Source: Yuukianura sp. NJ FZ-2021 (Eukaryota). Taken from it: a stretch of 64,000 nucleotides of DNA. The notes beneath the pieces were generated by a model. The model made no database searches and had not been told where the DNA came from. It was given only the letters and a program-made list of their open reading frames with translations. Made by a program: the position numbers and the translations under genes. The stretch spans positions 10,416,001-10,480,000 of the forward strand of contig CM102285.1 in the NCBI GenBank assembly GCA_046563655.1. Direction: 5' to 3'. This document shows, in pieces, positions 7,413 through 57,600 of this stretch (position 1 is its first letter; each line of letters begins with the position of its first letter).

Positions 7413-7492
7413 CATAGAGTTACCAAGACAATTCGATTTTTTCCCCTTTAACGTTAAAAGAAAAAAAATCGAATTGTCTTGGTAACTCTATG
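7413..7492. mobile_element. 80-bp palindromic MITE with 8-bp TSD; termini fit the P superfamily (CANRG)
   Basis: Perfect 30-bp inverted arms CATAGAGTTACCAAGACAATTCGATTTTTT / AAAAAATCGAATTGTCTTGGTAACTCTATG, flanked by the direct repeat GTTGCAGC at 7405-7412 and 7493-7500. Confidence 0.85.
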
Positions 7493-7610
7493 GTTGCAGC
7501 ACTTCAAAAGTTTGGCACAAAACGAAATCCACGAGTGATTGTCATTGTCAGGCTTTAACCAACCGCCGCCGTCGCCGTCAGTGACACGAGGTTAGCAGCG
7601 TTAACCAAAA

Positions 7611-9766
7611 ATGGATATCGTGGAAGGAAACTTGGATGATGCAGATGACCGTGCAAGTCGCGTTGCACCATTACGCGGATTTGCACATGCTGGAGAAATA
7701 TGGCATCAAGTAATCTTTTTTAAACCAAAAATCTAAATTTTTCAAAAATCCATTTTCTATAGATGTTGATGGAGGACTTTCGCTTCATGGAAGCTGCTCG
7801 AATGGAATCTGGAGAGTACGAAGGCGCTGGACTTTCCACGGACGATTTAAAACGTGAAAAAGAAAGATATTTGACAAATTTCACAAAATTACAAGCTAAG
7901 CTTATAACCAAGATTCCCATCTTTAGCCCTGTCAAAAGTGAAGCAGCTCATGATCACAAATCCTCAAGGACTTGTAAACTTCTCTAGTTATGATCATAAC
8001 GCAGCGCCGAATGTGGTAAAATGAACACAGTGATTAATGGAAGTAATCAGAATTGGGCCAACACAAACAGTTAATGATTTTTTAGACCGAAGAGTCGGAC
8101 TACGTTATTGTGACGGATTTTAGAACGCGGCGGTTTTTGACGCGTATGTCAGTATGGGCGCCAAGGGCCGTTTTTGCGCACTGGTTACTTGGAACGCGTG
8201 CCTTCCAAATCTTCATGATTCTTGTCATCATTTCCAATTCTATTCTTATGGCCATCGACGGAGGTAAGCAACCTAAACACGACTGCTGTCAAAGGTTTAA
8301 TTTTGAGAGAAATGAAAATTCTGAAAACTTGAATTACAGCTTAAAAATTGTTTCAGAATTGGAAGCCGATGCTGCAAAAACTGCCAGACCGATTTTAGAC
8401 ACGCTTGACTTTTTCTTTTTGTCAATGTTCGTTTCTGAAATTCTGTTGAAGTGGGCTGACAGTTTTAAGCTATTTTGGAAAGACTACTGGAACATTTTTG
8501 ACTTTGTGGTTACATCAATGGTAACTTTCAAAATGTGAAAATTACGATGAAGATTTTTGAAGCATTTTTCCTGAGAGTTGTTTATGTTTAGTCTCTAGTT
8601 GCGCCTGGCCTTGACCTTTTCACTCAATACACTCAAGATGATGAACGTTTGACGACAATAATTTCAGTTGTCAAATACATTCGAATTCTCCGAATCATGC
8701 GTTCCCTCAATGTGGTCACTCGGATTGAAAAGATCATGGTGATTTGGGCTGCAATTGCTCGAACAGCAAAGTCACTCCTGTTCATAACGCTTCTCATGTT
8801 CATCTTCTTCTACATTTTTGCTGTCATTGGTCTCCAAGTTTTTGAAAAATTTACAAAGTCACATCGAACGGATCTTCTATACAAGGATGCTTTCAGTGTA
8901 AAAAGTTTTTTACAATTCAGTTCACATTCAAATTCACTTTTGTTCCATTTTGCTCAGCATCTTCCGAACGCAATGGTGACGCTGTTCCAACTTTTCACAT
9001 TGGACAAGTGGTATCCCATCATTATGAACTTGGGAGAAGGAATGGAAGACCTGACAATGCCCGTGATCTACGTTCTTTTTTGGATTCTGCTGGGCTCTTT
9101 CATTTTTCGAAACATTTTTGTTGGAGTAATGGGTAAACACTTACGAATTTGGGAAAAAGAAATTCGAAATCTGATTTAAACTTCAACTTTTTTAACTCCC
9201 AAGTAAGCAACTTCCAAAACATTCGAATGGAATTTCAAGAGGAAGAAGAAATTTCGCTAATGGATGAAGAGCGACTGGAAAATATGGAACTCAATGTTTT
9301 TGGATTACACGAAGACATGTATCTCCGCATAAAAAGTCGTACGCTAACTAAATATTCCGAGGTCATACTAAAATCTTTGACGTTTTAGTACCAAAAATGT
9401 TACTGGAAAAGAGGACGTGTTGATTGACTGGGAAGAACAAGTATTCCATGACCTTAACCTTCTCAACTTGTGTGAAAATCTGGAATTGACCCCAACGTTA
9501 TGGCCGCGCGACACATTGTTAGATTTTTAAAAAACCTTAACCAAAATATTGTATAGTGATCTCAATTTCTCCTTTTAGATTTCTATACTACATTCTTATG
9601 GAATCTTTGTCCTGGAATATCGATGAACGAGACATTTTATTTGACTATATCAGTAAGACATTAAGTTGAACCTAACCAAACGTTAAGTTAAAAGTTATAC
9701 GAGTTTCGAGGAATTTATATTGATTTTGTTTTAGACACGGCTCTTTCGATGTGCTATGATCGCTGA
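7611..9766 (+). CDS. CATSPER2: CatSper2-like sperm cation channel alpha subunit, copy A
   Basis: Multi-exon single 6TM domain. S2-S3 EILLKWADSFKLFWKDYWNIFDFVVT; S4 KYIRILRIMRSLNVVTR; S5 LLMFIFFYIFAVIG; FTKSHRTDLLYKDAFS-HLPNAMVTLFQLFTLDKWY (TxDxW filter); S6 WILLGSFIFRNIFVGVMVSNFQNIR; C-terminus DWEEQVFHDL...WPRDTLFLYYILMESLSWNIDER. These match recalled CatSper2-specific motifs (RSPRQDLEY, TLDHWY, NFQNIRKE, LDWE, WPRDSLFRY). ATG at 7611, TGA at 9764-9766. Confidence 0.9.
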
Positions 9767-10071
9767 TCTATGATAATGCGGAAGTGGGGATCCTATCTAT
9801 TAAAAAAGCAAACAGTACTCACAATTACATCACAAAATAATTATTGTGAATCACTATTCTACAACAGATTTTGTTAAAACTTTTCGAAATAAACACAAGT
9901 TTGGGAGTAAAAAAAAATTATTCTTTTCATTTTTGTTTTGGTCAATTTCTGCGCCATATAAAAATATTTTCTAGTTTTGTGTACCAAACACGTTTTTGTA
10001 CACTTGAAAAAGATATTTAACTTTTCACATGGCGTGAAGTTGCTGCAACAAAATTTTAAATTTTCAAATTT

Positions 10072-10196
10072 AAATCTCCGAATCAAATCAAATCGAATCA
10101 AATCCCCGAATCCAAATCAAATTCAAATAAGTACTATAATTCTTTGAAACTTTTTTGAGAATACTATAATTTTTTAAAACTTTTTTGAGAATACTA
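10072..10196. repeat. Short tandem repeats between the two CatSper2 copies
   Basis: Degenerate (AAATC)n run, followed by an imperfect ~30-bp tandem unit TACTATAATT..T.AAACTTTTTTGAGAA (about 2.2 copies). Confidence 0.6.
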
Positions 10197-10371
10197 CAGA
10201 AAATTGAAAATTAGGCATGTCGCTGTGGTGACTAGACTACACATAAAAGCGACGCTGATTTGGTACCAAATAAATTGAAAAATGAAGACTTCTTCCATCG
10301 ACTGACTTCTTCCACGGATAATTTGTTTCGTCACATTTTTGGCAATCAATACTTTAATAGTGTAATCAAAA

Positions 10372-12593
10372 ATGAATATCGTAGAGGGCCAGTTGGACGA
10401 CCCAGATGACAGCGCAATTCATGTTTCACCGTTGCGTGGATTTGCACATGCTGGAGAAATATGGCGTCAAGTACATTCTGAATTTTGAAGTTTGAAAAAA
10501 ATAAAATCAAAAAGTTCTAAGCTATAGTTTTTGTGGTTAGATGCTGATGGAAGATTTTCGTTTCATGGAAGCTGCTCGAATGGGATCTGGAGAGTTTTAT
10601 ACTGGCGGTGATCTCTCTACGGACGATTTAAAACGTGAGAATAATTTGTTTTAATTATAATTTTGTTTAAAATTAACAAAAATTGTTAGAATGTTTGGAT
10701 TCTTAGAGATGTCAAAGGTCAAGCAGCTCATGATCACAAATCCTCATGGATTGATAAACTTTGCCAATTACGATTATAAGACCCCTCTAACCAGTGTAAT
10801 AACCAAACCATTAATAAGGTGAAGCAATCCGCATTTTTTAAATTCAAACATTAATTTTTATTGACTTATTTAGAGTGAAGAGAAGGATTACGTTGTCGTC
10901 ACAGACTACAGAACACGTCGGTTTATGACGCGCATGTCCGTATGGCCGCCGAAGTCCGTTTTTGCTCACTGGCTACTTGGAACTCAAGCGTTTCAAACCA
11001 TAATGATTCTTGTCATCCTTTTCAATTCTTTCCTGATGGCCATCGATGGAGGTTAGAAATGCTAAACCTCGTTGCAGTCATGATATAGTTTTGGAAAAAA
11101 CGCTGGAAATTGTTTGACGTTAAAAATATTGCTTTGTAGAATTGGGAATCGAAAATTCATCAACTGCCAGGCCAATTCTAGACACGCTGGACTTCTTCTG
11201 TTTGTCAATGTTCGTTCTTGAAATTCTGTTGAAGTGGGCTGACAGTTTCAAGTTGTTTTGGAAAGACTACTGGAACGTTTTTGATTTTGTGGTTACAGCA
11301 ATGGTAACTGTTAAAAAGAGACGATTTCAGAATTTTCTGGTAGTTTTTGTTCAATCAGCTTCTTTCTTATAGTCTCTAGTTGCTCCAGCCCTGGACGTTT
11401 TGACACAATCTACCCAAGACGATGATCGCTTAACACTTATCATTGCAATTGTCAAGTACATTCGGATTTTGCGAATCATGCGTTCGCTGAACGTAGTCAC
11501 TCGAATTGAAAAGATCATGATCATTTGGGCTGCAATTGCCCGTACAGCCAAGTCGCTTCTGTTCATCACACTGCTCATGTTCATCTTCTTCTACATTTTT
11601 GCTGTCATTGGGCTACAAGTTTTCGAGAAATTTACAATTTCACATCGAACTGATCTTAAGTACAAACATGCCTTCAGCGTAAGAAGTCTTTAAAATTAAA
11701 CGAGTACTTAATCGCCGTGCTTCAATATTCTAGCATAGCCTAACTACGGATAATTTTCGTTGTTCGATTTTTCAGAATCTTCCGAACGCAATGGTAACGC
11801 TGTTCCAACTTTTCACTTTGGATAAGTGGTACCCCATGGTTATGACCCTTGGAGATGGAATGGAAGACATGACAATGGCTGTGATCTACGTTCTTTTCTG
11901 GATTCTCCTTGGTTCTTTCATTTTCCGAAATATTTTTGTGGGCGTAATGGGTAAATATTTAAAATTTTGAAGAACTTTAGAAAATTGCGATCAAGATTTC
12001 TGTTTTATTCACTCTACAGTAAGCAACTTCCAGAATATCCGAAAGGAATTTCAAGAAGAAGAGGAAGTGACGCTAAGGGATGAAGAACGTCTGGCGGAAC
12101 AGGAACTGAATGTATTTGGATTACACGAGGACATGTAAACCGTCTATATCAAAAGGTCAACCACTAAAATAAGAGGTCAAACTAACTCTTGGCAAATTTC
12201 AGGGGTAAAAATATTGATGGGAGAGAAGACGTATTGATTGATTGGGAAGAACAAGTCTTTCATGACCTTAACCTGCTGAATCTGTGTGAGAATCTGGAAT
12301 TGACTCCTTCGCTTTGGCCACGCGACACATTGTTAGATTTAGAAAAACCTTTGCAAATTCGACCCGAATTTTTACTGTGTTTAATCGCAAAATATTTCTT
12401 GCAGATTTTTGTACTACATCCTAATGGAATCCTTGTCCTGGAATATGGATGAACGAGACATTTTATTTGACCACATCAGTATGTACTCACGCTGCTGCCA
12501 AGTTTTAATGTATAACTTAACTATTTTTCTAGACATTTCTAAAATTTCGATCCCGTTTTAGACACGGCTCTTTCGATGTGCTATGATCGCTGA
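10372..12593 (+). CDS. CATSPER2: CatSper2-like sperm cation channel alpha subunit, copy B (tandem paralog)
   Basis: Starts MNIVEGQLDDPDDSAIHVSPLRGFAHAGEIWRQ. It has the same exon architecture and intron phases as copy A, the same S4 and TLDKW pore, NFQNIRKE, WPRDTL, and the identical end TALSMCYDR* (TGA 12591-12593). I saw no frameshift or premature stop in the hand-spliced model. Confidence 0.9.
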
Positions 12594-13322
12594 CGTTCCA
12601 GAGCGATAGCGGATTGCTGCCGAGTTAAGGCTGAACTGGATATGTGATGGCACAAAACAAAATAAGCATAACCTATTTAACCAGTCATGTGTCACTACTA
12701 CATTTGATGGTTAATTAAAAGTTTTAATTTAAAACTTTCAAATCCTTGCCTAATTTCAAAATTCCTGTTGTTGACTCTTACAAACTCATCGTTATAAGAG
12801 CCCTTCATCATCAAAGTATTGGCGTCATAAAAGCAGCGGGATTTTGTAGGGTGTTTTCCGCTTTGAAATATTTTTGGCGCGCAGCGCGCAGCCCGGCCTT
12901 TCATCGCCGATCTTTCTTCTCTTTTGATTTTTTTGATTTTGCAAATCGTTTCGCGTGGTTTTGCAAACTTGAGTTTAATTCTTTTCGTCAGGTGCCATTC
13001 TGCTTAGTTTTTCATTACTATTTGGGTACGGCTTTCAGAACAGTTTCGCTCACACATCGTCGATCGATTGATAACGTAATCATTCCTTGTCTTGGGCTTT
13101 CTCTTCGTTTAGGCCTTGATTTAGGACAAAGGTATCTTTAATAATAATCGTTTTATTCAACTAAGAAACGAAAAAGAATGAACTTCCGTCAATAAGCAAG
13201 GTTGGCAAATAGGGAATTGGTATGGGATTACGATTAACAATAGTATGCATCAATTCTAGGGCTCGGACTACGGGTACTTCTCGTTAATCAAGTGGAGTCG
13301 GCCAGAACGCCAGAAGGAAGAT

Positions 13323-15253
13323 ATGGAATACGGTAACCCGGTGATGATCACGTCCAATATGAACTTTGCCTTAGGAGGGGATGTCGTGAAAGCAGGTCCA
13401 AATAGTAATTCGTTTGTACGGGATATCAGCATCATAACGGCGTTCATGGCCACCAATTATGCCATTCACAAAGCTGCCCCTCATGTTCGGCCAGCTATTT
13501 CACTTATTGCTCGTCGGGTAAGTTTGGAATTGCAATCTGGGACTCCCAGACTGGGAGAGCTACGCTAGTCAAGTAAATGAGACGTTGTTACGGTGTTTAG
13601 TTAACGTTAAAGTACTGTTGTTTCTTGTAGTCTGGACCGTATTTGAACCAGCTAAGCGAAACGGCACGCGGTGTTGCAGACGCTGTTTCCCGAATTCGAA
13701 GCCTACTTCGCAGAAGAAATGAACACGAAACATTCGTCCGATTTGTTGCAAGGAATCTTCCATCGTTTATATTTGATCCAGCACCTCGAATATTTGTTCT
13801 ACTGCAAGGAGTTTCATGTGCTTCCGCTAACGAAATATTAAGAGATAGACAAATTCGCCCGGCCCTTAGTGAATTAGAAGAATTTAATGATGAGGGAATC
13901 ATCGTGGCTTATGCAAAGACGTCTGACAGCGAAAGTGAAGCTGTGGAACCGACAGATGCACTTCCGGATTTTGGATTCGTGGATACTTGGCCTAACACCA
14001 ACCTAACTATGAAATTCGATCCATGGTAAAACGTATCCCTTATGAACTTACTACTATCGACCTTTATTCACATCATGCATAACCAGTTTAGTTAGTTTGG
14101 ATAGTATACAATATTCATCGTATTGTTCTTATTTCATAGGACTGGTGCTGGGGGTTGCTCCACTCCGATGGGATATGCCTCGCCTGTCCATCAATGGCTT
14201 GCCACAAGTGTGAATCCACCAGCCCAATTTACTAATGAAGAATCAGCCGTTCTGGAGGCGAATGCAACAAAAATTGCTACACTGGAAGCCGAGCTTATCA
14301 AAATGAAAGCAATGGTTGAAACGATTCTTCAAAGTCAAGCGAATTTTCGGGATTATCCACCCGCACCTCAGCCGATCCCAATAACAACTCAGCAAGAGCA
14401 TTTGAATCAACCATCAGCAGCACCGCCCCCACCTCCGCCTCCTCCTCCTCCTCCAGCTCCAATTTTTCATTCAGCCCTCAACGGTCAAAAAATCATCAAG
14501 CTGAAAACGAAAACCGAGCTAGAATCTAACGCACTCACTCCTCCAGTTCCTACTGAAACAACTAAGGCTGGCCCGTTATCGATGTCTGATGTCTTGAAAG
14601 GATTGAGTAACGTGAAGTTGAAACCTGTTGAACGGTAAATGTAACACGTAGACGTTTACTATCTTTGAATTTGTACAAACTCGCTAACATTGTTGTCTAT
14701 TTTTAATGCCAAAGATCCCCAGGGGGGACCCCGTTCAAACCGACTCGAATCTCAAATGAGACTGATCCCGCTGCAATGATTGCTGCCGCCCTCAAGAAAC
14801 GGTTTGCCAGTATCCAATCTCCGGCCTTATCGAATGTGGACGAGGAAGATAGTTTCTCCGACAAGGAAAATCAACCATTGAGTGGCTCAGACTCTTTTAG
14901 CAAAAGCCCTTCTTTTTTCCAATTCGGGAAATCTGGGAATCGTAAGAAGAAGTCCAGTGCTGCAGTGCTTGATTCGCCATTAGGTCTGAAACGTTCCAGT
15001 TCGGATCAGAAGCTGAATACATCCTTTCCGAAAAAGAGAAAGTCAACTGGTTCTCCGGCAGAGCAATCTCCAACACCATTGGTGAGATTCAATAATTCTC
15101 ATCCTTTTTTTTTGCTTGCCGTACTGCAACTTATAATAAAAACGCTCACTTTGACAATTTCAGTTTGGTCAACATTTGCTGAAACGGAGAGTTACTAACT
15201 CGCTGCAGAAGAAGCTGGGACGATTGAGTCTGGGCGAGGAAACAAACAACTAA
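13323..15253 (+). CDS. MTFR1: Mitochondrial fission regulator (MTFR1/MTFR2 family)
   Basis: Exons 13323-13517, 13631-14025, 14140-14634, 14715-15081 and 15164-15253. Family motifs: FVRFVARNLP, coiled coil KIATLEAELIKMKAMVETI, polyproline tract, SMSDVLKGLSNVKLKPVERSPGGTP, DPAAMIAAALKKRFA, FGQHLLK. The start codon choice is less certain. Confidence 0.85.
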
Positions 15254-33600: not shown

Positions 33601-36600
33601 AAAGTGATACTGTTGACTTTGAGAATTCAAAAAAAGTAACACTCTGAGCCAAAAAATATTTGAAAATAATAAATCTAGGCCATCGGATTCTTCTGTGACT
33701 TGGCGGTTAACGGACTTTTCTGGAGACGCTGCTGCTTAAGCCATTTGTCGTAGCGTTTTTCGGTTTAGTATGCTTGCTAACTTAGTCGTAAACTTTTGGG
33801 AAATCATTTCCTCCAAACCTAAGGCTACGAACAGAGACGCTCGTTTCCTTTTCCCTCTTTGTTTAATGGGAAACTTTAACCTCTTTAAATTGTCTTACAA
33901 AAGTCTCACCATCAAAACTTAATCAACCTCACACCACTAGTACCACGCAGAATCTACAGTCTCCGAGGTAGTAAGAATTCTGCAAGGATTCGCAAAATTG
34001 GCACTTGGCATTACTTTCGTATCCTCCTCCTTCTTGGTCTCTCTGGAAGTGTCTCGTAAACAAAATTCTTTTGGTGTCAATTTCAAAAAATATTTCGTCG
34101 TAATTTTAAGTTCAAGTCTCACTATCCTATGAGTTAAACAACCTTGGTGGGCAGGAATTAAAGAAAAAAAACACTTTTTGCACTCACTCCATTTCTGCGA
34201 TTTCTTGAAAACAACTTTTTGTAATTGTCTATTTTTAATCCCCATTTCCGCAACTCAGCTACACCTTTATTGCAAAGTTTTAAAAGCGTTTTTCTCTCGC
34301 CATTTTTCAATGTATTTTGGCAAAAACGAAAACGATTTGCCCAATTGTTGTATTTTTTTCAGCCGATATTTCTAAAACCTATATTTCTAAAGCCGATATT
34401 TCTATGTGTGTTTTTAAAAATCGATTTTTATTAATTCTCTACTTTCATTTGATTATTTCCCTGAATTCTTGTTGTTGTTTTTTCATTCACTAATTAGCGA
34501 AATTATTCCTTCATTTAAAAATTTTGTGTTACAAAGTCCACTTTCAAAAAGTTACACTTTTTCGACAACGTTTTCCTACAAAAGTTACTTTTGCTGAAAC
34601 ACAATCTGTGTTCGGTGGTTTGTATGGTTGCAAACCGTAAAACCACAAACTCTTAAGAACAGACTGAACGTTTTTACTTACAAGATTGACTGTTCATTTT
34701 TTAGAAACAGAAATATAGTACCCCGTTTTGGAAAAATTTCTAACCTTGGCTTTTCTGAAAAGTTTCGTATCGTAATTTAGAAAAATCTTTTGCCGTGTTA
34801 GCTTTTTCTGTTGTTTTGTTTTTATCTAAACTTCATACTTTTTTTTAATGTTTTTGACCATTTGACCGATTGCGCAATGGAACTGGTACTTATTAGCCTT
34901 CTCTAATCCAAGTGTAAATATTAACTAAAAACTATTAAGTCAACTATTAGCTTATCCTAACTTTTAATCTTGTCTCACAGCAGTTTGTTCTGTAAGTTTG
35001 ACTTTGGTGACCTACCTCCTCTGCACTCGTGATCAAACAAATTTCTTAAATTTTGGAAGAAAAAAAAAGAGAAGCGACAACTTTTTGCGTTCTCTCTGTC
35101 GGCATGAGCAAACTTGCGAAATCACTTGACGTCAAATTCTAAACTTGAGGAGAAGCAAATTTTCTAGCCACCTAGCACCGACACGTGTCTGAATTCCATA
35201 ATGGAATTGAAAGTAACAAAACCTCTCAAATCATTAGCTGAATTTAAACCACACTTCGTCAGAGGATGTCCGACCAGATTCAATTTTTACCTAAAATGTA
35301 TCTCCCTAGTAGTGCGCCTAACCTTGAATTGATTCTCGTGTTACACTTTTACCTAATAGCTGATGCGAAAATTTAAAAAAAAACGAGTATTGTCTATAAT
35401 GTAACCTACAAAAAAGAATACAACTTTTAATTGTAATTCACACAGAAAAAAACTTTGAGCAAGAAAAATTGGTTTTCATTAGCATCTCATCTCTTTTAAC
35501 TTGATTTTTTTAGTCTAGTTTCATCTCTCATTCAAAATTCACTAAAAACAACTGCAAATTATTCCATCTACGAGGCTGTTTCAAAAGAGTAAAAAGTACA
35601 AGGACAATTTTTTAGCAGTTCAATTAAAGAAACCATTTGTAAACTGAAAAGTAACAAACATTTCAAAATTATTTTCAAAGTGACACACCGCCCTGTTTTC
35701 AAAAATTTTTGGCTCGACAGCCACTTTTTTGCGTGTCGAAAATTCTTCTGACACCAAAAAAAACTTTCCGTGATACTTTTTTTGTTTCTTTTAAAAAACG
35801 ACGATGCGTTTATTTCAACACTCGTTTTTTTCGGGCTGTTTTCATTTCGTATTTTGGTGTTGTTGTTTATGTGGAAATACACTTTTGAGTTTTTGCACAA
35901 AAATAACCAATTACGATTTGTTATCTGATTAAAAACATTTTTTGTGTAATCAACATATCGTGGTACAGGAAGTGGGTTTGGTTTTTTAACTTTCTATCCC
36001 AATTCTATTGTACTTTTACACGTTTAGCATGAAGGATACTTTGAAACATGCGTAACCTACATTTGGAGACACAAATAGTAACCACGTTCACAGAAGTTGC
36101 CTTTTTGCATTAATAATTCAAAGTAACCCTCAACTGCCAAAGGAGATGGCACAAAGTCCATAAGAAAGTTGCCTTGGTGGTATTCGAATGAAATTTTTAT
36201 CAGTTGTTAAGGTCGGTAGTGGGATCGTAATTGCAAATTTTCAGACCCCTAGAAACGATAGGTCACGGGTCACGGGGGGTCAAAGGTCACCATGTCATCC
36301 TATGACGACCCCATACAAGTAGCATATCTGCGGAACGCGCTTGACGCCCTGATTCAGAAAATGTATATATGTCAACATCTATAATGTAAGAGAACGAAGT
36401 AATGGCCTAATGTCCAAAAACGTAAATTTCGAGAGCGGATTGGGACTTGCGATTTTTACGTTTTGCGTCATAACTTTGTTGTCCTACGTCATAGGTATTG
36501 ACATATATACATTTTCTGAATCAGGGCGTCAAGCGCGTTCCGCAGATATGCTACTTGTATGGGGTCGTCATAGGATGACATGGTGACCTTTGACCCCCCG

Positions 36601-39600
36601 TGACCCGTGACCTATCGTTTCTAGGGGTCTGAAAATTTGCAATTACGATCCCACTACCGACCTTAACAACTGATAAAAATTTCATTCGAATACCACCAAG
36701 GCAACTTTCTTATGGACTTTGTGCCATCTCCTTTCTCACGTAGACCGTTTGGCATTAACACGCACAAATACTAAATTTCAGAAACTTTTTTGTACTCCAT
36801 TTCCTCCACTTTGTTGCATTTCTATCTTCTAAAATACTCCAATTTCTTTCACATCAAGTTCAACTTATCAAAATTTGAGAATTTTATGCTCCAAAACTGC
36901 AGAATGAACAAGGTGAAAATTTTTGGAAAATGTAAATTATCCACCATTTTTTTTTGTCAAATTCAGCATCGATTTAATGACATCTCATAACTTACCTTCC
37001 TCATTCAAGGCCTTCTACTTTATTTTTCAACTAAAAGCTGTTGGGGAAGGGCAAGTTGACAAGAGAGCTCATTTGTGGCCCTGCTTGTATAATGTAGGGT
37101 CAATTTGCAAATTGCAATTGAGGATTTCAAGGATTTAGCATTGACTCATGTAAGAGGCTTACATAAAATGTTGCCTCCTGCAACAAGTTGTTTTCCACAT
37201 CATCATTTTTTGCCAATCAACTAAAAGCTTCTAAGGTATTACTATTTTTTTGCAAAGTAGGCGATATTAAGGATTTTGTATAGAGGTAAATATTTATACT
37301 TGGTAAAAGTCAACCAACTTTAGGTTAGTAATGATGTCAAAACTGATCTTAACGTGCAAAAATATTGGAATTTAGAATTTGCTGACTCTGTCTGTGCTTC
37401 ATTCTTTACAAAACATTGCTCCCTGCAAAACTTCCGTTTGTACTTGTAACAGCAGTTAGCAGACAGTTGTTGCGAAATTGGAAATTAGGAAGAACTGGAA
37501 GATGCGAATTTAGAATTCGGCAAATTTACAATTCCGTAGTAGTCTGAAGTGCAAATTATGCTGAACTCGTTTCAATTGTGTTTTGCTTGTTTGGTTTTCC
37601 AGGGAGCCAGGCATCGAATGGATGGCAATGGACTTATGACGATCATTATTCCAGGTGAGATTTCCTCAGCGTCTCTTTTTCGTTTGAAAAGTACGGTATG
37701 CTCCAGCGTAAATTTTAGAACAAGTTTCCAGAATCAAAAACTGCCATGACGGAAAATTGGAAAGTCATTCTGGACAAAGCTGTACATTTTCTAGTACCGA
37801 ATGTTCATAAAGGCTCATAATTTTTTGAAGCCATAAATGTTTTAGTGTGTAAAGGGAGTTATAAAAGCGCCTTTTTGGCCGTGCGGGACTCTTACTTTCG
37901 GGAAATTGGCACTCGTCCGTGCTGATTGCCAAATTTGAAGTGGAAGCCAGGGGCCTTAAAATAGTGGAGCTGCAATATTTTGGGGCGGGTGATGATGTTG
38001 TTTATGGGTTTCAGTTTAGTAGGAAGCTAGAAGTTTCACTTTCATTTGGAAATGTACACTGGAAACTGTTTACTTCCTTTCCAAAAGCCCAAGGTACACA
38101 CACACAGCATGGAATATATTTATGAAGCCATCTCCCTCATTTCCATCCTGTCATAACCCTCCATTTTATTGATGATGGAGGTGTGGGTAAGCTGTAGCAA
38201 TGCAAAAGTGCGTCGTAACACCTCCAAAAATAATAATTTTCCAGTTTCTCATCAAAACTACTGTCGTCGGATAATAAATTTTGGAGAGAAATGGGGAACA
38301 ATTTTTTGAAAAATGAAAATTGTCAAAGTCCAAAATCATCAAAGGGCGAATCTCTTTTCTGTCCAAAGCAGAAGAGCACGCTTTTTCGCGTGTCAATTTA
38401 GTCCACAAAGTTCAAATGGAAAATGTCAAAGGTTTTTCTTTTGAACAAAAAGTTAGCTAATCTTGTTTTTGCTGCCTACTTGTTTGTGAGAGGAACTTGT
38501 AGAAGTTGCAGTTTCAAAATTTCTTTTACCTTTTATGGTTTTTGAGTCTCAAAAAGTTGTGAAGTCTAAAAGTTGCTTGAGGAGCAGAGGAGGTCATGAC
38601 CTCTGAATTGCTATTGAAGTCCTTGTCGAATGCCGAAAAGTAACAAATTGAGATAGCAGCAGTTTGTGCTCTTTTTCAATGTTTTTCCTTCAAATTACAA
38701 CAAATCGTTTTCTGTCATTATAGTACTGACAAAGTACTGGATAGAAACATCCCAAAAGCCAAAGGCTGTTTTGCTACTTTCAAGCGCAACTTTTAGTTCT
38801 CCTTACGAGACGAAGAAATATCTAATGTCTATACTTTTATATTTTTCTTGGAACTTTTTTCGATTCTTACCAATTCACTTGGATTCGAGTCACGTTCAGA
38901 TCCAAAGTAATTTTTTGATTGGATAAAAGGAAAATACAAAAATCATGAAAGATTCTTGAACCGAAGCGCACCGGTGTTAGTGGAAACTTTCTCTACACAA
39001 ATTGATGGAAAAAAATTGGAGCGAGGAGAAAATAGCTCGTGATTTTTTAATGAAATGAAATGTGTTTGAATTTCTTTGATTTCCTTAGCTAAAATTTTTC
39101 TTAGCATTAAATTGCATATTATGCATAGTTTTGGTATGAATAATTCCGTTTTCTCAAGAAACGAATTCGAAGTCTTGTCAAAATTTAAAAACTACTCAAA
39201 AATGTCTGAGACAAAGGTAGATGTACAATTTAAATTCGCGTGCGATTAAGTTGTGGAGTAGAGTCATTGTGGAGATCTGTTGACCAAATTGGTGTTAGAC
39301 GTTTTTTAGTTGACGAATTTGTCTTGTGTCCCCTCATCATTACAGCGGATTTCTTGAGGCGACTAACGTAAATGCTTTCTCCATTTTTTCTTTTCCATCG
39401 CGTTTTAGGTTTTGTTCGTGAGATCAGATGAAATGACTGCGGCTTAATTTCCTTCCTGTCATAATGAAAGCAAAGAAAGAAACAACCTAGAAATCTTCAA
39501 GTCTTCTACGAAAATGACAAGATGATGAAGGTAGAGTTTCACAAAGTACAAGGCCTGTCACCACCAAATGACTCTCCTTCCAAGGAGGTCCTCATGGTGG

Positions 39601-48600: not shown

Positions 48601-51600
48601 TGAGGTACATCATAAAAGTAAACCTAAAGCACTTTAGGAAATGGACATGTCCTTGTTGTTAGCATTTTCCACTTGTCTCAACCTTAACATTTGCCTAGGC
48701 TAACATTGTCTGTTCAAACATTTCCACCCTCCAAGACGAATACGAATGAATCCCACCATTCATTCAATTATTTCCGCATTGTCGTTCAAAATACACATTT
48801 CACTCGAGTAAAATTTTTGCAAACGCTGACAAAAAAATTCTTGCAAATTGGCGAGGTTGAAAAAAAAGTGAAAGGTGATTTTTTTTTGTCAAATTTTTCT
48901 TTCTTTGCAAATTTTGACGTGTCAATTGTTGTTTTTGATAGATTGTAAATTAGAATTTCAAACAATGAAGTGTAGTCATTTCCGCAAAAACTTCATTATG
49001 GTTGAACATTCCAATGAATTTCCTTGTAGCTGTTGTTTCCAAAGTGTCTCATTGTAATCCGTAACTATTAGTTGTACTTATGGAAATGAGGTAATTTGCA
49101 CCCAATAATTGCAAAACCCTATTCCTTCCAATGTTATGGTGCGAAACATGGTGTCTGGTTAGGAAGAGAGATCCCAAGTGCTAATTGTTATCACTTCCTA
49201 TGTAGGTGTTAAGTGCTTGTTCGCTGATTAGCAAAAGATGCTACAAGAACAGTCAGTTGATGCGTAGTGCCTGCAATGTATGAACATAAAAATAAACGAA
49301 CTAACCACAACTGTTTTGTTTTTTGCGTCTAGGCCGTCCACTTCCTAACCTATGTGTTCATCTCTTCAAAATCTATGGACTCCTGGAACATTTCCATTTG
49401 GATCCAGTCATCGTATGGAAGCTCTTCTGTGAGTACTCAATTTCTACAAAACTCTTGAATTTCTTTAAAAACAAACTCGTAGTTCTAACTTCCCCACAAA
49501 GGTCAGAGGGCGTTGAATGAACGTGACGCAATGCAGAGTTTAAACAGACGTCAATTCTTAAATTCTTTGGTGTAGACTTCAAAATTTTTCTTTGAAGTCA
49601 GAATTTTGAAAAATGGGAAACGGGAAGGCATGAAGGCTTGGTGAAAGAATTGTATACATAGAAAAAAAGTTCGCGTACTAAAATATGGTGATGGAAAAAG
49701 TAGAGACGGGGAAAGATTAGGCGCGAGGAAGAAGATGACCTCTGGTGAACCCGCAGTGTTGAGACCCACTTGACCTGACCTCAATTCTAAAATTGAATCT
49801 ACAAATTCCAACACAAAAATTGTGATCTTTAGTCACCCCAAATCTGGAAGATTCGTACTTCCAGAATAGGCTTTTCTTTCATTCCAGTACAGCTGAGACT
49901 ACTGTAATAGGTCGCCAGCGTCTAAAATCCTATCGTCTATTTTCATTTTCAATTTTCTGGGGGAGGATGACGCTGTTGGTGTGTGAGCAGCTTTACTTTT
50001 CTAGAACTCGAACTTTTAGAACTCACAGTAAGCAACAGGGAGGGGATTCAATATTTGATTAGAATTTTCAATTTCCAATTATAGGAAGCACGTATCCCTC
50101 TCCAACTCGTTGTCAGCATTTCTCCTCTGCTGCGTTGTGCAAAAGAAGACAGAAATGGATTTTGTAGGATTTTCTAAAAAGAAAAAAAAAGCAGATCTTT
50201 TCCAAAATAGGCTTTGACGGAGGAGGTGTGCGAGGAGGACCTTCAAACCTCTTTCGAATTCCAATCTTAGTTTTTATTTTTTCCAAAAAGTTTAATTCAA
50301 ACAAGTTTTTCAAGGTTTTTACATATGCCTTTAGTTAGGAAGTTCTTGGATCGCAAATAACCGGCGCCTCCGATTTTTTACACTTTTCTCAAAATTAGAA
50401 TGAAGCAAACAAAACTCGACATGATCAAACGAATATTTTAGATTTGGAATTGGAAAAAAGTGTAAAACTTTACTTTCACTGTAAAAGAAATCATGCTCAT
50501 GACAAGAAATTTGTAGTCATATGAATTCCAAGCATCAAATCTTAATACAAATGTTTCATCTCTATCATAAGTTATCCAAAAAGAAAAAAGTAAAGTAGCA
50601 AAGTAAAACCTCTTGACGTTTTTTAAGTCCAAATTTTTTGAATCAATGCCAAAACCACTGCAAAGAAATAACGCGTTCTCCACAACTCTGACGACAACGC
50701 TTGAAATCCCTATTTTTATTGCGATTACGTTTCGGTTTCTCTACTCATTCTTCTTTGGCTTCGGATTTGACAAATTTGGAGTCAAGTGAAGAGCCACCAT
50801 CGTCATCCAGTATGGAATTTTTTCAAATTTAAAACAAAAAAGTGTCACACAAACTCAAACGTTTTTTCGCAATCTGATTTTGTGAATCTCATAGAGCAAA
50901 CTATATTTCCCCGTATTTCCCCCAACTTTTTTAGCTCCTAACTTACGTTTTTTGAATTTTCGAACTTTTGACATTTCGGGCAACATTTTTGGTTGAAAAG
51001 TTCCTTTTTGACATTTCCTTTGATCCGTCTGTTTTTGGAGGTGTGATGATGATGATGAAAGTGACAAGTAACTTAACGAGAAGTGGGAGAAAGAAAGTGA
51101 CTTTGTCACTCACATCCCAAAGGACACAAATCATGATTACATTCAATTACTACGCAGCAGCATCTCTCACATCTTCATCTCCCGAAGCACGCCATAATCT
51201 AAGCAGCAAAAATCTAAGCACGCCAAAATCTAAGCAAGCCAGAATCTAAGCATGATGTTACAGTGGATTTCGATTAGGTTTGGTTAGTTAAATTAGTTGG
51301 ATTAGGCTTTAATTAACGTTAGGTTAGGTTTGGTTAGCATAATTTCATTGCTAATTACCTAATTTAGCATGCTTAGATTTTGATCTGCTTAGATTTTTGG
51401 ATGCTTAGATTATTGTTGCTTAGATTATGGCATGGACTCTTCATCTCCTCTGCCCTTACGCTAGGCTTTGGATATTATAAAAGCTCAGAATCACCCATGT
51501 TAGGTTTGAATAACTTTCTAAAAGCCAACTTTCACAAGTTTAGTTAGAAGGAAAGATCACACCCTGTTTTCAGAATTTGATTCATGATCCCATATTTATC

Positions 51601-54600
51601 CAAACACACTCAAGGAGATCAAAAGACTGGCATGGTCCAACTTACTCCTTGCCACATGCTCTTCATGGATCAACTTGAGTAAATAATGGTTTAGAGCTAC
51701 ACTGGAACCTTCTGGGAAAGCTCGGAGCTTTTTCTTGTTGATGAAAGCTCTGGAAGCGACCAGGATTTGCTTTTCCTATTGCTCAAAACGCTTCTGCTCC
51801 TCTGCCCAATTTTATAAATTAACTCAAAGCTCTCATTTCCGTTGTCGAAAATTAACTCAACTAGTATTACATACTAAACTATTTCACTATTTGAAGAGCT
51901 TGTTGATTTTTGTTGATTATTTAAACTTTGAAATTATTTCCGCTTGGAAAGGTAATACTTTAAAGGTAAACTTTCGTTAGGTTTAGCACAGCTTAACCAA
52001 AACCTAGCAGAGGGCAAAGCCCTTTTCAAATTTAAATTGAACAATAGGTTCTATTTGAACACGAAACTCTGCTGTGGACATCAATATTTGTTGGTGTTGC
52101 TCGAGTTTCACAAGCTTGTTCTTTTTGTTTGCCTTTTGTGTTAACCCCAATTTTAAACTTAAAGAGAAAGTCTATTCATTAGGGAAAGGAAATTGATGGA
52201 GATTGTCCAACTTTGAATCAACTGGAATTAAAAGAAAAGGTGAAAATTGAATTCCAAAATTAAGTTTTACCTCATAAAGTTAGCTTCTTTTCAACTCAAA
52301 CTTTCTCTAACAATTTTTTTTACTTCGAAGTAAAAAAAAAGTTTAGGCTATGTCATTTTAGCCTCAAATAGCAGTTTGCTTTTGTTCAATGCTTTAGGAG
52401 TTTGGTGGACGTGCGTGTTGAGGAATCGAATGGTCTACTTTTATGTTTTTCAAAATGGGCAACAGACTCCTCCAAAACTCCCTTGGATGCGTGTAGAGTT
52501 TCAGCCTTGATCTTCCTAAAGCCTTTGAACTGAAGATTGTACTTTTAATGATTTGTAATTTTAAGGGATTTTGTTCATTAACTTTCTCCAAAATCTAGAA
52601 AACGGGAGCCGTAAAATTAAATTCTAAAACTCAGGAAAACTTTCTCCTGAAAAGTCTATAAGCTCATTTCGTGGCTTCCTCCCTGTTATATTTTCCACCA
52701 GAAGTAATATTCGCATAAGCTAATTAAAGCGGCAGAAGGTGTGGCTTTTCAGATACCCTTTTTGAAAATTTGGTTTTCTAAAATTATGAAACCGGAATTT
52801 CCTACATCAAAAAGAAAGTTCACCATTACAAAAGACCTGCTTTCCCAGAATAGATAATGCTCAAACTAACTTTCTCTAAAAATAAGTGTGCCTTTTGTAT
52901 ATTTTTGTGTAAAATCGGAATTTGAAATCATTTCACGAGTTTGTATTCAAATTCTTGCTTTCTCTCCGGAAGTTTTAATTAAACATTTTTACGAACCAAA
53001 TGAATCATAATGCAAATTTGATCTGAAACGTAAATTTCACAATAAAGCAATCCTATTCCGATTTTCTAATCATTTTGCTCTGGAAAAACATTCACAAAAC
53101 TGTAAGTTACATTATGAAAAAACTTTTATAATAATTGGTAAAATAAATAAATGTATAATTATTAGATTATAAATATAAATAATACATTAAAGAAGCTGAT
53201 ACGGTTCCGTTTTCGCGTTTTTCTTAAAGTAAAAGTCCTATTATTTCTGGCGCAGCTTTCACTTTATTGTTTCTGCTTTTCTTTTGCCTTTTGTTGGATC
53301 ATGCATGCTTTCTGCGTGAGTTTTTGAAGTTGTTCAAGTAGGATAAAGACGAAAGGCCCAATCACGAGCCTTAAAAACAAAACAAGTCAAGGGCCCTTCA
53401 ACCCTTCTCGTCTTCCTTTTCTGAAGTCAAGTTCTCTTGACATGCTTTTAGGAGAAAGTCAAGGACCAGAGAACGGAAGATCGAAACTTTAGGATGTCAA
53501 AACGTACTAAATTTTGCAGTCAAAGGACAAAGTTTCAGGAAACTTAGCAGTTTCCATAGTCGACAGTAGTGGAAGCCAAATGTGGTAGTGACGTTTTCCT
53601 TTTTTTTGTTCTTATAGCTATCATTGAAGATGGGTATCACTGGAGGAATCCATATCACAATGCAATCCATGCCGCTGATGTCACCCAGGCCATGCACTGC
53701 TTTCTCCAGGAAAGTCGAATTCTGGAGAAGTTACAACCGCTTGAGATTTTTTCTGCCATTGTGGCAGCTGTTACTCATGACCTAGATCATCCTGGAGTCA
53801 ATCAACCTTTCCTTGTGGCAACTTCGAATCATTTGGTAGCTCTGTACAAGGTAAATCAATTGTCAAATTTATCTAACATTATTTACTATACTAGATTTTC
53901 ACTAGACTTTCTCCAGCTTTCTACATACGAACTATCAAAAATATCCGGCACTCTTGTGAGAGAAAACTCACATGCACTTGAAAAACTAAAAATGTGGCAA
54001 ATAATTAAGTGAAAGTTGGCATTTACGTAAATTCATCCAAAAATTTGCCTAACAAGCACCACTGTGCTGGGGCTGAACACGTAATTTCTTCATTAGCTTT
54101 CACTTTTCGCTTGACGTTTTTGAAATGTTAATTACCCAAAACCTACGTAAGATTTGACGGAATTTGGGCGGATTTGTTCAAAAGATGACGTCATTACCAC
54201 CTCCGTTGTTGTGTGCAAAAGGTGATTTTTGCGTAAATGGGTAAAAGGTGTAGTTCATTCTAGGGGAGAAAGGAATCGATGAGTAGTTTCTCCCTCCGGT
54301 TTTTTGGCATAGTAGTCGTAAGTTCATTGCCTCCATGGCTCTGTTGAACTAGTTTAGGACTTTTTCACGACTTTACCAAAAACCTAGAACTCTACCGTAA
54401 AACCTAGAACCTCCCTCCTGACACATTTCCATAGAGCTATTCTTTACTCCTCGGAGCTTGGGCTGTGGGGATTGTAGAGTCGGGGCTTCTAGGTGATTTG
54501 CAAGGCGTGACTGGAGCCCATTTGGGTCGTAAAGCCTATTACCTCACCACCATCTAGGACTTGGGCTGGCGGGACTTAAGGTCTTCAAGATTAGTTTAAT

Positions 54601-57600
54601 GTACCAAGAAGATCAAGTATCAGGGAGGCTGCTGTGGAAGAAGGCATGCTAGCACGGAGCGCCAAAGGAAGGACATTAAAAGTTCAAAGTAGATTTGTCG
54701 TACTGCCGGAAGTTCAGAACGAAATTTTAAATTCCAACACCTCTTCGCAACTTCACAGAAACCAACAGCACCAAAATTTTCATAATTTCTTGGCAAACAA
54801 ACTGAAAGAAAAAATCCTTTTCAAAAATGTAATTTTAAAAATCAAGAATGGTTACCACCTTGACTTTCCCTTTTCAAAATAAAAGCCACACCATTTTCTA
54901 ATCTCTTTCTACTATCACAAAAAGCATACAACGTCTTCTCTTATTACAATTTTTTAAAACTAGAGTCAGTATAGTACAGTTTTCCTTCGAAAAAGAAAAA
55001 TCACGCAGAATTTTATGAATAGGGAAGGCGGATATTATGGGTGAAAGTCAGAAGGAAGCCTATTGTTCCCATTCCCCAATCCAAAAACTTTGGGCACGTG
55101 GAGTGGATTCCAATGACGTAATTCCTGCTCTCCTTAGCTCGCTTGCCAAAAAAAGTGAAAGTTTCAACTTCCTCATGAGTCCATAGCCCTCTGCAGTAAG
55201 TAGTGACTAACGGATCAAACGAAACCTACGCTAACAAAAATTGCACCCGTCCCCTCTCTCCCACCACCACTTCCTCGTTCCGGTAGCATAATTTCCTACA
55301 CTTCCATGGGCCCGTGGAATTGGAAAAGGAACGGAGATAAAGGTGAAGGAACTTTCTTTTTCCTAGGGAAACAAAACTCGTGACTTTCACTTTTTCAAAA
55401 AACAAACTTACCTTTCTCCTTTGAAAATTAAAAACGGAGAGATGAAGGTGAAGTTTTTAAATCACTGTAGAAAAAACACGATTCACAGGCAGAGATTGGG
55501 CGATTGGGGATTTGAGGAATTCGGATGATTCGGAGATGAAGATTCATGTTAAATTTTTTATTACTTTTAGTAACTGTTTGTTTTATTTGTATTTTTAGAA
55601 TTCTTCTGTGCTTGAAAATCATCACTGGCGATCAGCTATGGGGTGTTTGAATGAGAGCGGAGTCAGTGAGGTTCTGGGGCGTGAGAACGTTGCCCTCGTT
55701 GAAGAACAAATAAAGTCTCTAGTTTTGGCAACGGATATTACGCGTCAACAGGAGTTTCTGACGCGTCTGAAGGTAATGAATCATCTTGTAGCTTCGTTGT
55801 CGTTTTCTCCCAACGACATTTCATTTCCTCAGTTTTCTAGATTTTTTTCTCCAAAAAATTAATTTCCTAACAGTAAACAAATGGACTTTTTAAAAGGAAA
55901 TAGCAGTTATAAATTACACGTTAGAAATGATCGATGTTGTCATCCAGGCTTTTCCTCTCTAAAAACGTTTTTTTTTTTGCACTTCTGAATACTGGTCTAG
56001 TTTATACATAACATGACCTAATGCTACTCACCTAACCTAACCGCTACGTTGTTATTATTAGTGTGAATGCTTTCACTAAATGTTGGAAAGACGTGGGTTT
56101 TCAGAATTCAGAAACGTGAAAGCATCTTTGACATTTCTTTAATCCTTCAAGGGTGTTTCCCCCTTGCTTCGTCCGCTGCTTAAGTGAAAATGTGTTTGAT
56201 GACCTTTTGCATTGCAGGCGTACGTTGACACGGATACGTTGGACATGAATGACCCTGGTGTCCGTCACTTTGTTCTTCAAATTGCTCTTAAGTGTGCAGA
56301 CATCTGTAATCCGTGTCGACCGTGGGATATTTCTAGGAAATGGAGCATGAAAGTCTGTGAAGAGTTCTTTCGGCAAGGTGACTACGAGCGTCAACTCCAA
56401 CTGCCTGTCACGCCTGTTTGTGACAGATATGCTACTTCCGTCCCCAAAATACAGACTGGTGAGTTCCGTTTTAACAAAACGATACTTGTTCAGAACAAAG
56501 GGAACAATGTCTCCTAGAGCACAATTTTTGAACATCGTCTCCAGGAAATAAGTTCGAAGTCAATTGAAACGTACAAAATACGGAGAAAGTTGGACTTTCT
56601 CAGCTGAGGACAAAAAAAGCCAGAGTTGAATAGAAGCAGAAGCATAGTTCAACCTGTTTTGGAAATTCATGAACGTTGCAGTTGGGCGATGAGCAATACA
56701 TTTCATCTGATTGAATTTTAATCACATTATGCTGAGTTGATCATTTAATTTGTTTAATGAGGATCTTTAGGAAAAATGAAATCTTTGGAGAAATGTTTCG
56801 GAAAAGCTTGTGATTTCATTTCCTAAAGTAAAAAAAATCTCCAAAAAACCTACACTCATGTTCTTAAACTTAGATGTTTTTTTATTCTAACTAAAAAGTA
56901 AAGTTATGCCTTTGCACTTTGTAAATTCGTAATTTGCAAATGGGAAATTTTCATTTTCTTAATTCCTTTCTAACTCTGAAAGTCTATGCTATGGATGGAT
57001 GGAGTGAAAGATTATTGTGAAAAAAAGAAGAAAGAAAAACTTTTTGACTTTCACTGCTCCAAAAAGACGAAAACTTTTTTTTTTGTTAAAATTATTCTTG
57101 TCTTACGGAAAAGAGAAAGTATAATGTTTCACGATTGAGTTTTTTTTTGTGTTGAATTTTGACCCACTTGATTACCAAGTTTCGAAAAGAAAGAGAAAGG
57201 AAAAAGAAGAAGTTTCTTTGCTTTCCCAATTTGAAAGTTTTTGTTTGTTTTGTTTCAGGCTTTCTAAAATTTGTAGTTCGGCCTCTATTTGAAGAGTGGC
57301 ATCGCATGATGGACACACCGCTGTCGACAGTTATGATTGGCAACTTGAATTCGAACGACATCAAGTGGAACCAACTTCTGGAAGCTGAGCAAAATCAAGA
57401 AGCACTCACTGCCGAAATGGAAGCAGAAGAATCAGAATTAATTCGAAACATGATCATTGAGAATCCGGATTTGATTAATACAAGACCATCGGCACAGCGA
57501 TCCCGAGAGCCCAGTGAATCTGATCGTGAAAGTCGTTCTGTACGCTTCGAACCTACAATAATAACGGCCAGTGACTCTGAAGAGACTTCAGAAGCTGATG

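Follow-up and report, generated by a model that had tools for sequence, protein, structure and literature searches.

Can a channel complex described as intolerant of extra subunits keep two working genes for one of them? Cai and Clapham described the CatSper complex as preserved without further duplication, with a strict four-subunit stoichiometry under which extra copies should degenerate (accessible part of PMC2572835). The question is raised by a 64-kb stretch of the genome of the springtail Yuukianura sp. NJ FZ-2021 (assembly GCA_046563655.1, contig CM102285.1, positions 10,416,001 to 10,480,000; contig C3 in our numbering), referred to below as the window. In it two CatSper2 genes, copies A and B, lie in tandem and head to tail, occupying positions 7611-12593 from the ATG of A to the last stop base of B. 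Repeats between 7.6 and 12.6 kb of the window form at least 11 blocks spaced about 2.8 kb apart.

Copy A (7611..9766, forward strand) encodes 483 amino acids and copy B (10372..12593, forward strand) encodes 484, each in a GT-AG model with 10 introns and no internal stops. The exons of A lie at 7611-7709, 7763-7853, 7927-8015, 8086-8263, 8357-8520, 8592-8897, 8958-9132, 9204-9318, 9389-9517, 9579-9652, and 9735-9766, and those of B at 10372-10470, 10541-10634, 10707-10795, 10874-11051, 11140-11303, 11373-11678, 11776-11950, 12020-12134, 12203-12331, 12405-12478, and 12562-12593. The exon structure common to both copies that an initial annotation had described was borne out: there are 11 matching exons, 10 of them equal in length, and exon 2 differs by a single codon (91 versus 94 nucleotides). 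All 20 introns are GT-AG, with lengths of 53-97 nucleotides. The proteins share 400 of 483 residues, so that the description of a "nearly identical" core holds for S4-S6 and the C-terminus (92-96% identity) but not for the protein as a whole (83%). Residue differences number 34/132 in the N-terminus, 23/102 in S1-S3, 11/134 in S4-S6, 12/45 in the post-S6 linker, and 3/70 in the C-terminal block, which agrees with the concentration in the N-terminus, the S1-S2 loop, and the post-S6 region noted at the outset; the S1-S2 loop peptides quoted there were also correct. The reported divergence of introns and third codon positions was likewise found. Third positions differ at 154 of 483 codons, compared with 58 first and 38 second positions, and the introns align at 49-63%, 7 of the 10 still better than shuffles (p ≤ 0.015). 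Because the sequences on either side of A and B align no better than shuffles, the ends of the duplication cannot be placed.

Both copies are closest to named CatSper2 proteins, rather than to CatSper1, CatSper3, or CatSper4, in two kinds of search. A 195-residue frame of A used as a protein query gave 4 matches among 427 candidates, the named ones being CatSper2 of Orchesella cincta and Folsomia candida. In the PDB, the best CatSper chain was CatSper2, and four-domain channels scored higher only via summed repeats. Copy A contains a single six-helix Ion_trans domain (PF00520) with a charged S4, which was aligned with 48 homologues, and is 48-50% identical to Folsomia CatSper2. The F. candida and O. 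cincta proteins (XP_035703116.1 and ODM97959.1; 475-478 amino acids) are the same subunit, have the same springtail-type S4, and are 43-50% identical to A and B; their selectivity filter reads TLDHY or TLDQW, in contrast to TLDKW in A and B. Each of these species has one CatSper2 entry among the protein matches, which is not a genome census, whereas two genes are found here. A tree built from 16 CatSper2 rows joins the two copies as sisters (100/100) within a springtail clade (100/100) whose base is unresolved, so that by homology, too, the host is most likely a springtail; this tree contains no CatSper1, CatSper3, or CatSper4 rows and leaves out four gappy or long-branch rows of an earlier tree. 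A metagenome scan yielded 23 loci, of which two, L073 (4.9 kb) and L074 (1.3 kb), are CatSper2-like and of insufficient length to reveal neighbouring genes. At 48-49% identity to both A and B, L074 provides no closer outgroup.

The two genes have diverged for a long time under constraint. By the Nei-Gojobori method with Jukes-Cantor correction and 500 codon bootstraps, nonsynonymous divergence (dN) between A and B is 0.100 and synonymous divergence (dS) is 0.72, giving a dN/dS of 0.138 (95% confidence interval, 0.10-0.18). Across five regions dN/dS ranges from 0.03 to 0.24, and no 60-codon window exceeds 0.35. If one copy had been neutral over the whole branch since the split, about 21-22 stops would be expected; none is present. 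These results support purifying selection, which the initial annotation had proposed for both copies together with dN/dS as the check. Relative-rate counts showed no significant asymmetry between A and B with 5 of 5 and 6 of 6 outgroups (largest chi-square, 2.88), the outgroups being only 42-51% identical. Neither rate asymmetry nor excess change at conserved sites, either of which could mark a neofunctionalised paralogue, was found. Patchy recent gene conversion between A and B was not seen, with dS of 0.46-1.39 across 12 windows, a test that does not cover old conversion. Among the 40 best-supported variant places derived from reads, 26 fall in the two genes, 24 of them in introns and 2 in exons, both synonymous, even though exons make up two thirds of the length.

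The likely partners of the two copies are encoded elsewhere in the genome (98.7 Mb in 22 contigs). Exon 6 of B gave two strong matches (E 4e-58 and 9e-51), the next being at E 4e-5 and 29% identity. An Ion_trans search returned 143 matches from the 150 of 181 candidates that were scored, and 30 loci plus 35 more were inspected. CatSper1 (L046, contig C2) has the filter TLDDW and an open frame of 487 amino acids that is incomplete at the 3' end; CatSper3 (L039, contig C4) has the filter TMDGW, split by an intron, and 424 amino acids open in a model without its 5' end; CatSper4 (L013, contig C8) has the filter TQDGW in one frame of 271 amino acids. For each the best CatSper chain in the PDB was the subunit of the same name, and named CatSper4 proteins of springtails share 47-49% identity with L013. 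All three models are open over S1-S6 and have incomplete ends. No second copy of CatSper1, CatSper3, or CatSper4 was found in the genome search, these counts being lower bounds. CatSper beta and theta are also present; profile searches for gamma (PF15064) and delta (PF15020) were blank, as were their controls, so that they give no evidence of absence. L031 and L033, first considered for CatSper3, were rejected as such and are two two-pore channel genes.

What could keep two intact CatSper2 genes, constrained and evolving at symmetric rates, beside a full partner set? Their expression, their assembly, and the reason for their retention we infer as follows. A local tandem duplication, old enough for a dS of about 0.7, would have taken in all of CatSper2, proximal promoter included. 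Each channel would then contain one CatSper1, one CatSper3, and one CatSper4, plus either A or B in a single CatSper2 slot, so that the usual 1-2-3-4 heterotetramer would come in two nearly equivalent forms. The mouse complex, in which CatSper2 pairs with epsilon, implies a single such slot per channel (accessible part of PMC12851028). In the mouse complex (PDB 7EEB and 9UBW) four different six-helix pore subunits carry filter aspartates, and A and B likewise have the filter Asp in a T-x-D-x-W motif; beta and theta are found here too, but whereas the mouse has one gene per slot, the springtail has two candidate genes for that of CatSper2. Both genes would be kept since each provides only part of the CatSper2 that is needed, through shared dosage or through expression split by stage or cell type; in the split-expression variant, the promoters would have diverged around a retained X-box. 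We consider it probable, though well short of certain, that A or B fills the one CatSper2 slot of the tetramer and that both are held by shared dosage or split expression. The springtail can thus probably build two slightly different versions of the channel.

The promoters contain candidate sites for such an arrangement. An X-box-like (RFX-type) site with a putative regulatory function lies 40 bases before the ATG of A (7571..7585) and fits the published pattern RYYVYY N1-3 RRHRAC. A second, identical to it at 10 of 12 recognition letters, lies 153 bases before the ATG of B (10219..10232). Both sites, each less than 200 bases from its ATG, fit one of four published patterns tested (that from Drosophila) and not the three stricter ones. 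The published pattern occurs at 34 sites in the window, with a chance of 0.095 per 200-base stretch. CatSper1 has an X-box-like match at -186, and for CatSper4 a match to a stricter pattern lies close to the probable 5' end. A strict pattern of our own finds 3 sites in 64 kb versus 0.17 expected, which we did not count as a test because the pattern was written after seeing both sites; its third site is at 59408-59420.

Several observations weigh against two equivalent, stably retained copies. Taken alone, a match to the X-box in a single gene has no predictive value, whereas a conserved match does (accessible part of PMC2375033). The tree branches are unequal, at 0.081 for A versus 0.15 for B in the 16-row tree and 0.063 versus 0.17 in the earlier one, and pairwise dN/dS averages both branches and is blind to a recent relaxation of one copy. 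The synonymous-only exonic variants support constraint only weakly, because the 40 places are a selected part of 498. A single contig of run X5, which comes from another study and carries another organism label, joins position 9184 back to 8325 at a depth of 23, versus about 5 around it. This junction would repeat exons 5-7 of A head to tail and in frame (645 nucleotides from S2 to S6, beginning and ending in the same phase), and copy A may therefore be unstable in that organism. Finally, compared with the only springtail between-species pair, Orchesella and an unnamed relative, the differences between A and B are more N-terminal and fewer in S4-S6 and the C-terminus (chi-square 19.6, p 0.0006), a contrast that leaves possible room for specialisation.

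Specialisation would mean that channels with A and channels with B differ in gating or regulation through the N-terminus, the S1-S3 voltage sensor, and the post-S6 linker, and serve at different times (stored and activated sperm being one example) or in distinct ciliated cells. Of the 83 residue differences, 69 (at least 80%) fall outside S4-S6 and the C-terminal block, in a distribution unlike that of the springtail pair, and the promoters of A and B do not align. Six consecutive residues differ in the S1-S2 loop directly before S2, the helix through which mouse CatSper2 is paired with the canopy subunit epsilon (accessible part of PMC12851028); S2 itself differs at only 2 residues. The same regional gradient, however, appears between species: in six echinoderm and amphioxus pairs, 11-26% of N-terminal, 8-22% of S1-S3, and 4-14% of S4-S6 residues differ. 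At positions conserved in at least 80% of homologues there is no excess change, A and B differing at 4 of 121, compared with 2-6 of 104-118 in five echinoderm and amphioxus pairs. The copies do not differ in S4 or in the filter motif, and the 60-codon windows give no elevated dN/dS. The clustering of differences is thus largely the constraint gradient usual for CatSper2. Given that the differences fall at places that vary among orthologues too, with symmetric rates and no difference in the pore, functional divergence is not indicated; specialisation of A relative to B is possible on these alignments, and we regard it as unlikely, if worth keeping in view. Of the suggestion that the paralogues form alternative channels, then, the natural reading that either copy can occupy the CatSper2 slot is retained, while the clustering noted alongside it is mostly the usual pattern of constraint.

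A second springtail bears on the same question. Allacma fusca has two full-length CatSper2 proteins, CAG7675430.1 (P0005) and CAG7818995.1 (P0192), annotated as unnamed, both with filter and S4. They are 48% identical (214/444), lie on different contigs, and form their own clade (100/99), in contrast to the tandem pair here at 83%. Grouping A with one Allacma copy was rejected (p-AU 2e-83). Sequence comparison thus points to a second, older, independent duplication in Allacma, unless a shared duplication was masked by old gene conversion; the keeping of this Allacma pair would favour specialisation. The statement that each CatSper alpha subunit is normally single-copy accordingly needs qualification: the other subunits were found once here, but Allacma, too, has two CatSper2 genes. 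A protein search for CatSper4 (476-2000 amino acids) returned Folsomia and Orchesella entries and none from Allacma.

The filter itself is unusual in both copies. The motif TLDKW (A, 8997..9011; B, 11815..11829; both forward strand) keeps the filter Asp and places Lys next to it. In the 103 motif-bearing proteins among 118 of fewer than 1,000 amino acids, the residue after the filter Asp is Q in 49, H in 41, N in 5, R in 3, and others in 5; K does not occur. The change to Lys is older than the A/B duplication. The position after the filter residue has been discussed as a selectivity determinant (accessible part of PMC10120453), and a Lys beside the Asp may alter calcium handling. Other springtail CatSper2 filters (P0003, P0008, and P0049) read TLDHY, TVDQY, and TIDQY, with Tyr instead of Trp. 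Because these filters also depart from the usual motif, the CatSper2 pore is more variable in springtails than in the sampled marine animals.

A broader proposal combines the Allacma pair with the filter change: more than one springtail lineage would have kept two CatSper2 genes and would use functionally different 1-2A-3-4 and 1-2B-3-4 channels for sperm phases or ciliated cells, with the Lys perhaps changing calcium handling. If true, the CatSper2 slot would be exchangeable and tunable, in a complex described as duplication-intolerant. We hold this proposal to be speculative and rather improbable.

Retention of both genes would, by contrast, be temporary if one duplicate were on its way out, both having long been constrained and one being now silent or relaxed but free of disabling changes so far. 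Precedents have been published. The primate CATSPER2 duplicate involves the same subunit, and its second copy is a pseudogene (accessible part of PMC2572835); herring CATSPER3Y and CATSPER3A are likewise alpha-subunit duplicates, located on one chromosome and about 15 million years old (accessible part of PMC7533707). Just upstream of A, about 120 bases before the gene, there is also a polymorphic mobile element, a palindromic miniature transposon of 80 bases (7413..7492) that forms an inverted repeat and is hAT-like by its 8-base target duplication; contigs skip 88 bases there in 2 of 4 runs. The X5 contig with exons 5-7 of A repeated is a further point for decay. Against this, neither copy has a stop, frameshift, or broken splice site despite a dS of 0.72; the exonic variants listed are all synonymous; and X-box-like sites are kept before both copies. 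Herring CATSPER3A, unlike either gene here, has a broken exon structure, a dN/dS near 1, and no detected expression (accessible part of PMC7533707). We therefore view ongoing decay as doubtful.

The initial annotation had also raised the idea that one copy replaces a lost CatSper1, CatSper3, or CatSper4 in a non-canonical tetramer, and named a full set of these subunits as the finding that would refute it. Partial alpha-subunit sets have been reported in a butterfly and in ostrich (accessible part of PMC6660944; springtails are not named in the accessible part of its supplements). The three genes are nevertheless all present here, each found once, open over its modelled parts, intact over S1-S6, and with a typical filter motif. 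Replacement is thereby refuted as far as these models reach, and we give it very little credence.

That two haplotypes were placed in tandem during assembly deserves almost none: polymorphism is high, with 498 variant places from reads in 7 kb, and no listed contig spans the whole stretch, but a dS of 0.72 and introns at 49-63% rule such an artefact out. Divergence between A and B far exceeds that between contigs and window, since 213 of the 284 run X1 contigs resemble the window at 95% or more. In addition, A and B are each matched by contigs of their own, with 0-6 differences, and contigs of run X5 extend over parts of the two copies at about 95-97%. In runs X1-X3 (one sample, possibly the source) all 30 bins over A, B, and their flanks have cover, as do 25 of 30 in X5. 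The latter has no cover at 9208-9675 and 10144-10377, gaps that are uninformative at a depth of about 5. Contig depth does not give copy number.

An old pair under purifying selection, together with a second springtail pair, is a counter-example to the single-copy account of CatSper; the two published duplicates that we found did decay. The literature searched, with subscription papers mostly outside it, contained no report of a retained intact CatSper pair, and the herring Dataset S2 scores presence only; retained duplicates are possible in polyploid fish such as salmonids and carps. In its accessible part, a comparative table lists Orchesella CatSper1 without mention of duplicates (PMC13674862). 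The pair is also a natural two-variant system for asking which properties are tuned by the N-terminus, voltage sensor, and linker of CatSper2. In the mouse, contacts within the channel array are made by beta, gamma, and eta rather than by CatSper2 (accessible part of PMC12799140). The weight of the finding is limited by the canonical channel composition, by the frequency of other channel duplicates in this genome, and by the lack of a demonstrated functional difference.

Among these other duplicates are two sNHE/SLC9C-like genes on contig C2, L034 (7.35 Mb) and L054 (23 kb), whose individual exons are 43-90% identical; L034 contains an exchanger domain, a voltage sensor, and a cyclic-nucleotide domain. 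sNHE is the usual upstream activator of CatSper, so that, judged by these matches, the activator is duplicated too. A Nav-like pair on contig C1 (L011 and L016, at 1.71 and 1.78 Mb) has 82-86% DNA identity, and L052 and L053 share a 5-kb block at 96% identity with an Ion_trans match.

For the 80-base transposon before A, the genome search gave 85 matches with each strand counted separately (40 candidates scored out of 49), and it has 8-base duplications at all 3 loci examined. Each of its arms contains an X-box-like site (7419-7432 and 7473-7486) similar to the site before CatSper4, and the element could spread cilia-type promoter sites. Directly downstream of B, at about 13260-15200 of the window, is a gene with a match to MTFR1 (mitochondrial fission regulator, PF05308). 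At 53560-59634, a cyclic-nucleotide phosphodiesterase exon (PF00233) is followed by long low-complexity frames. Two further inverted repeats, at 36139-36734 (266-base arms, 97%) and 51188-51434 (67-base arms, 85%), are probably additional miniature transposons.

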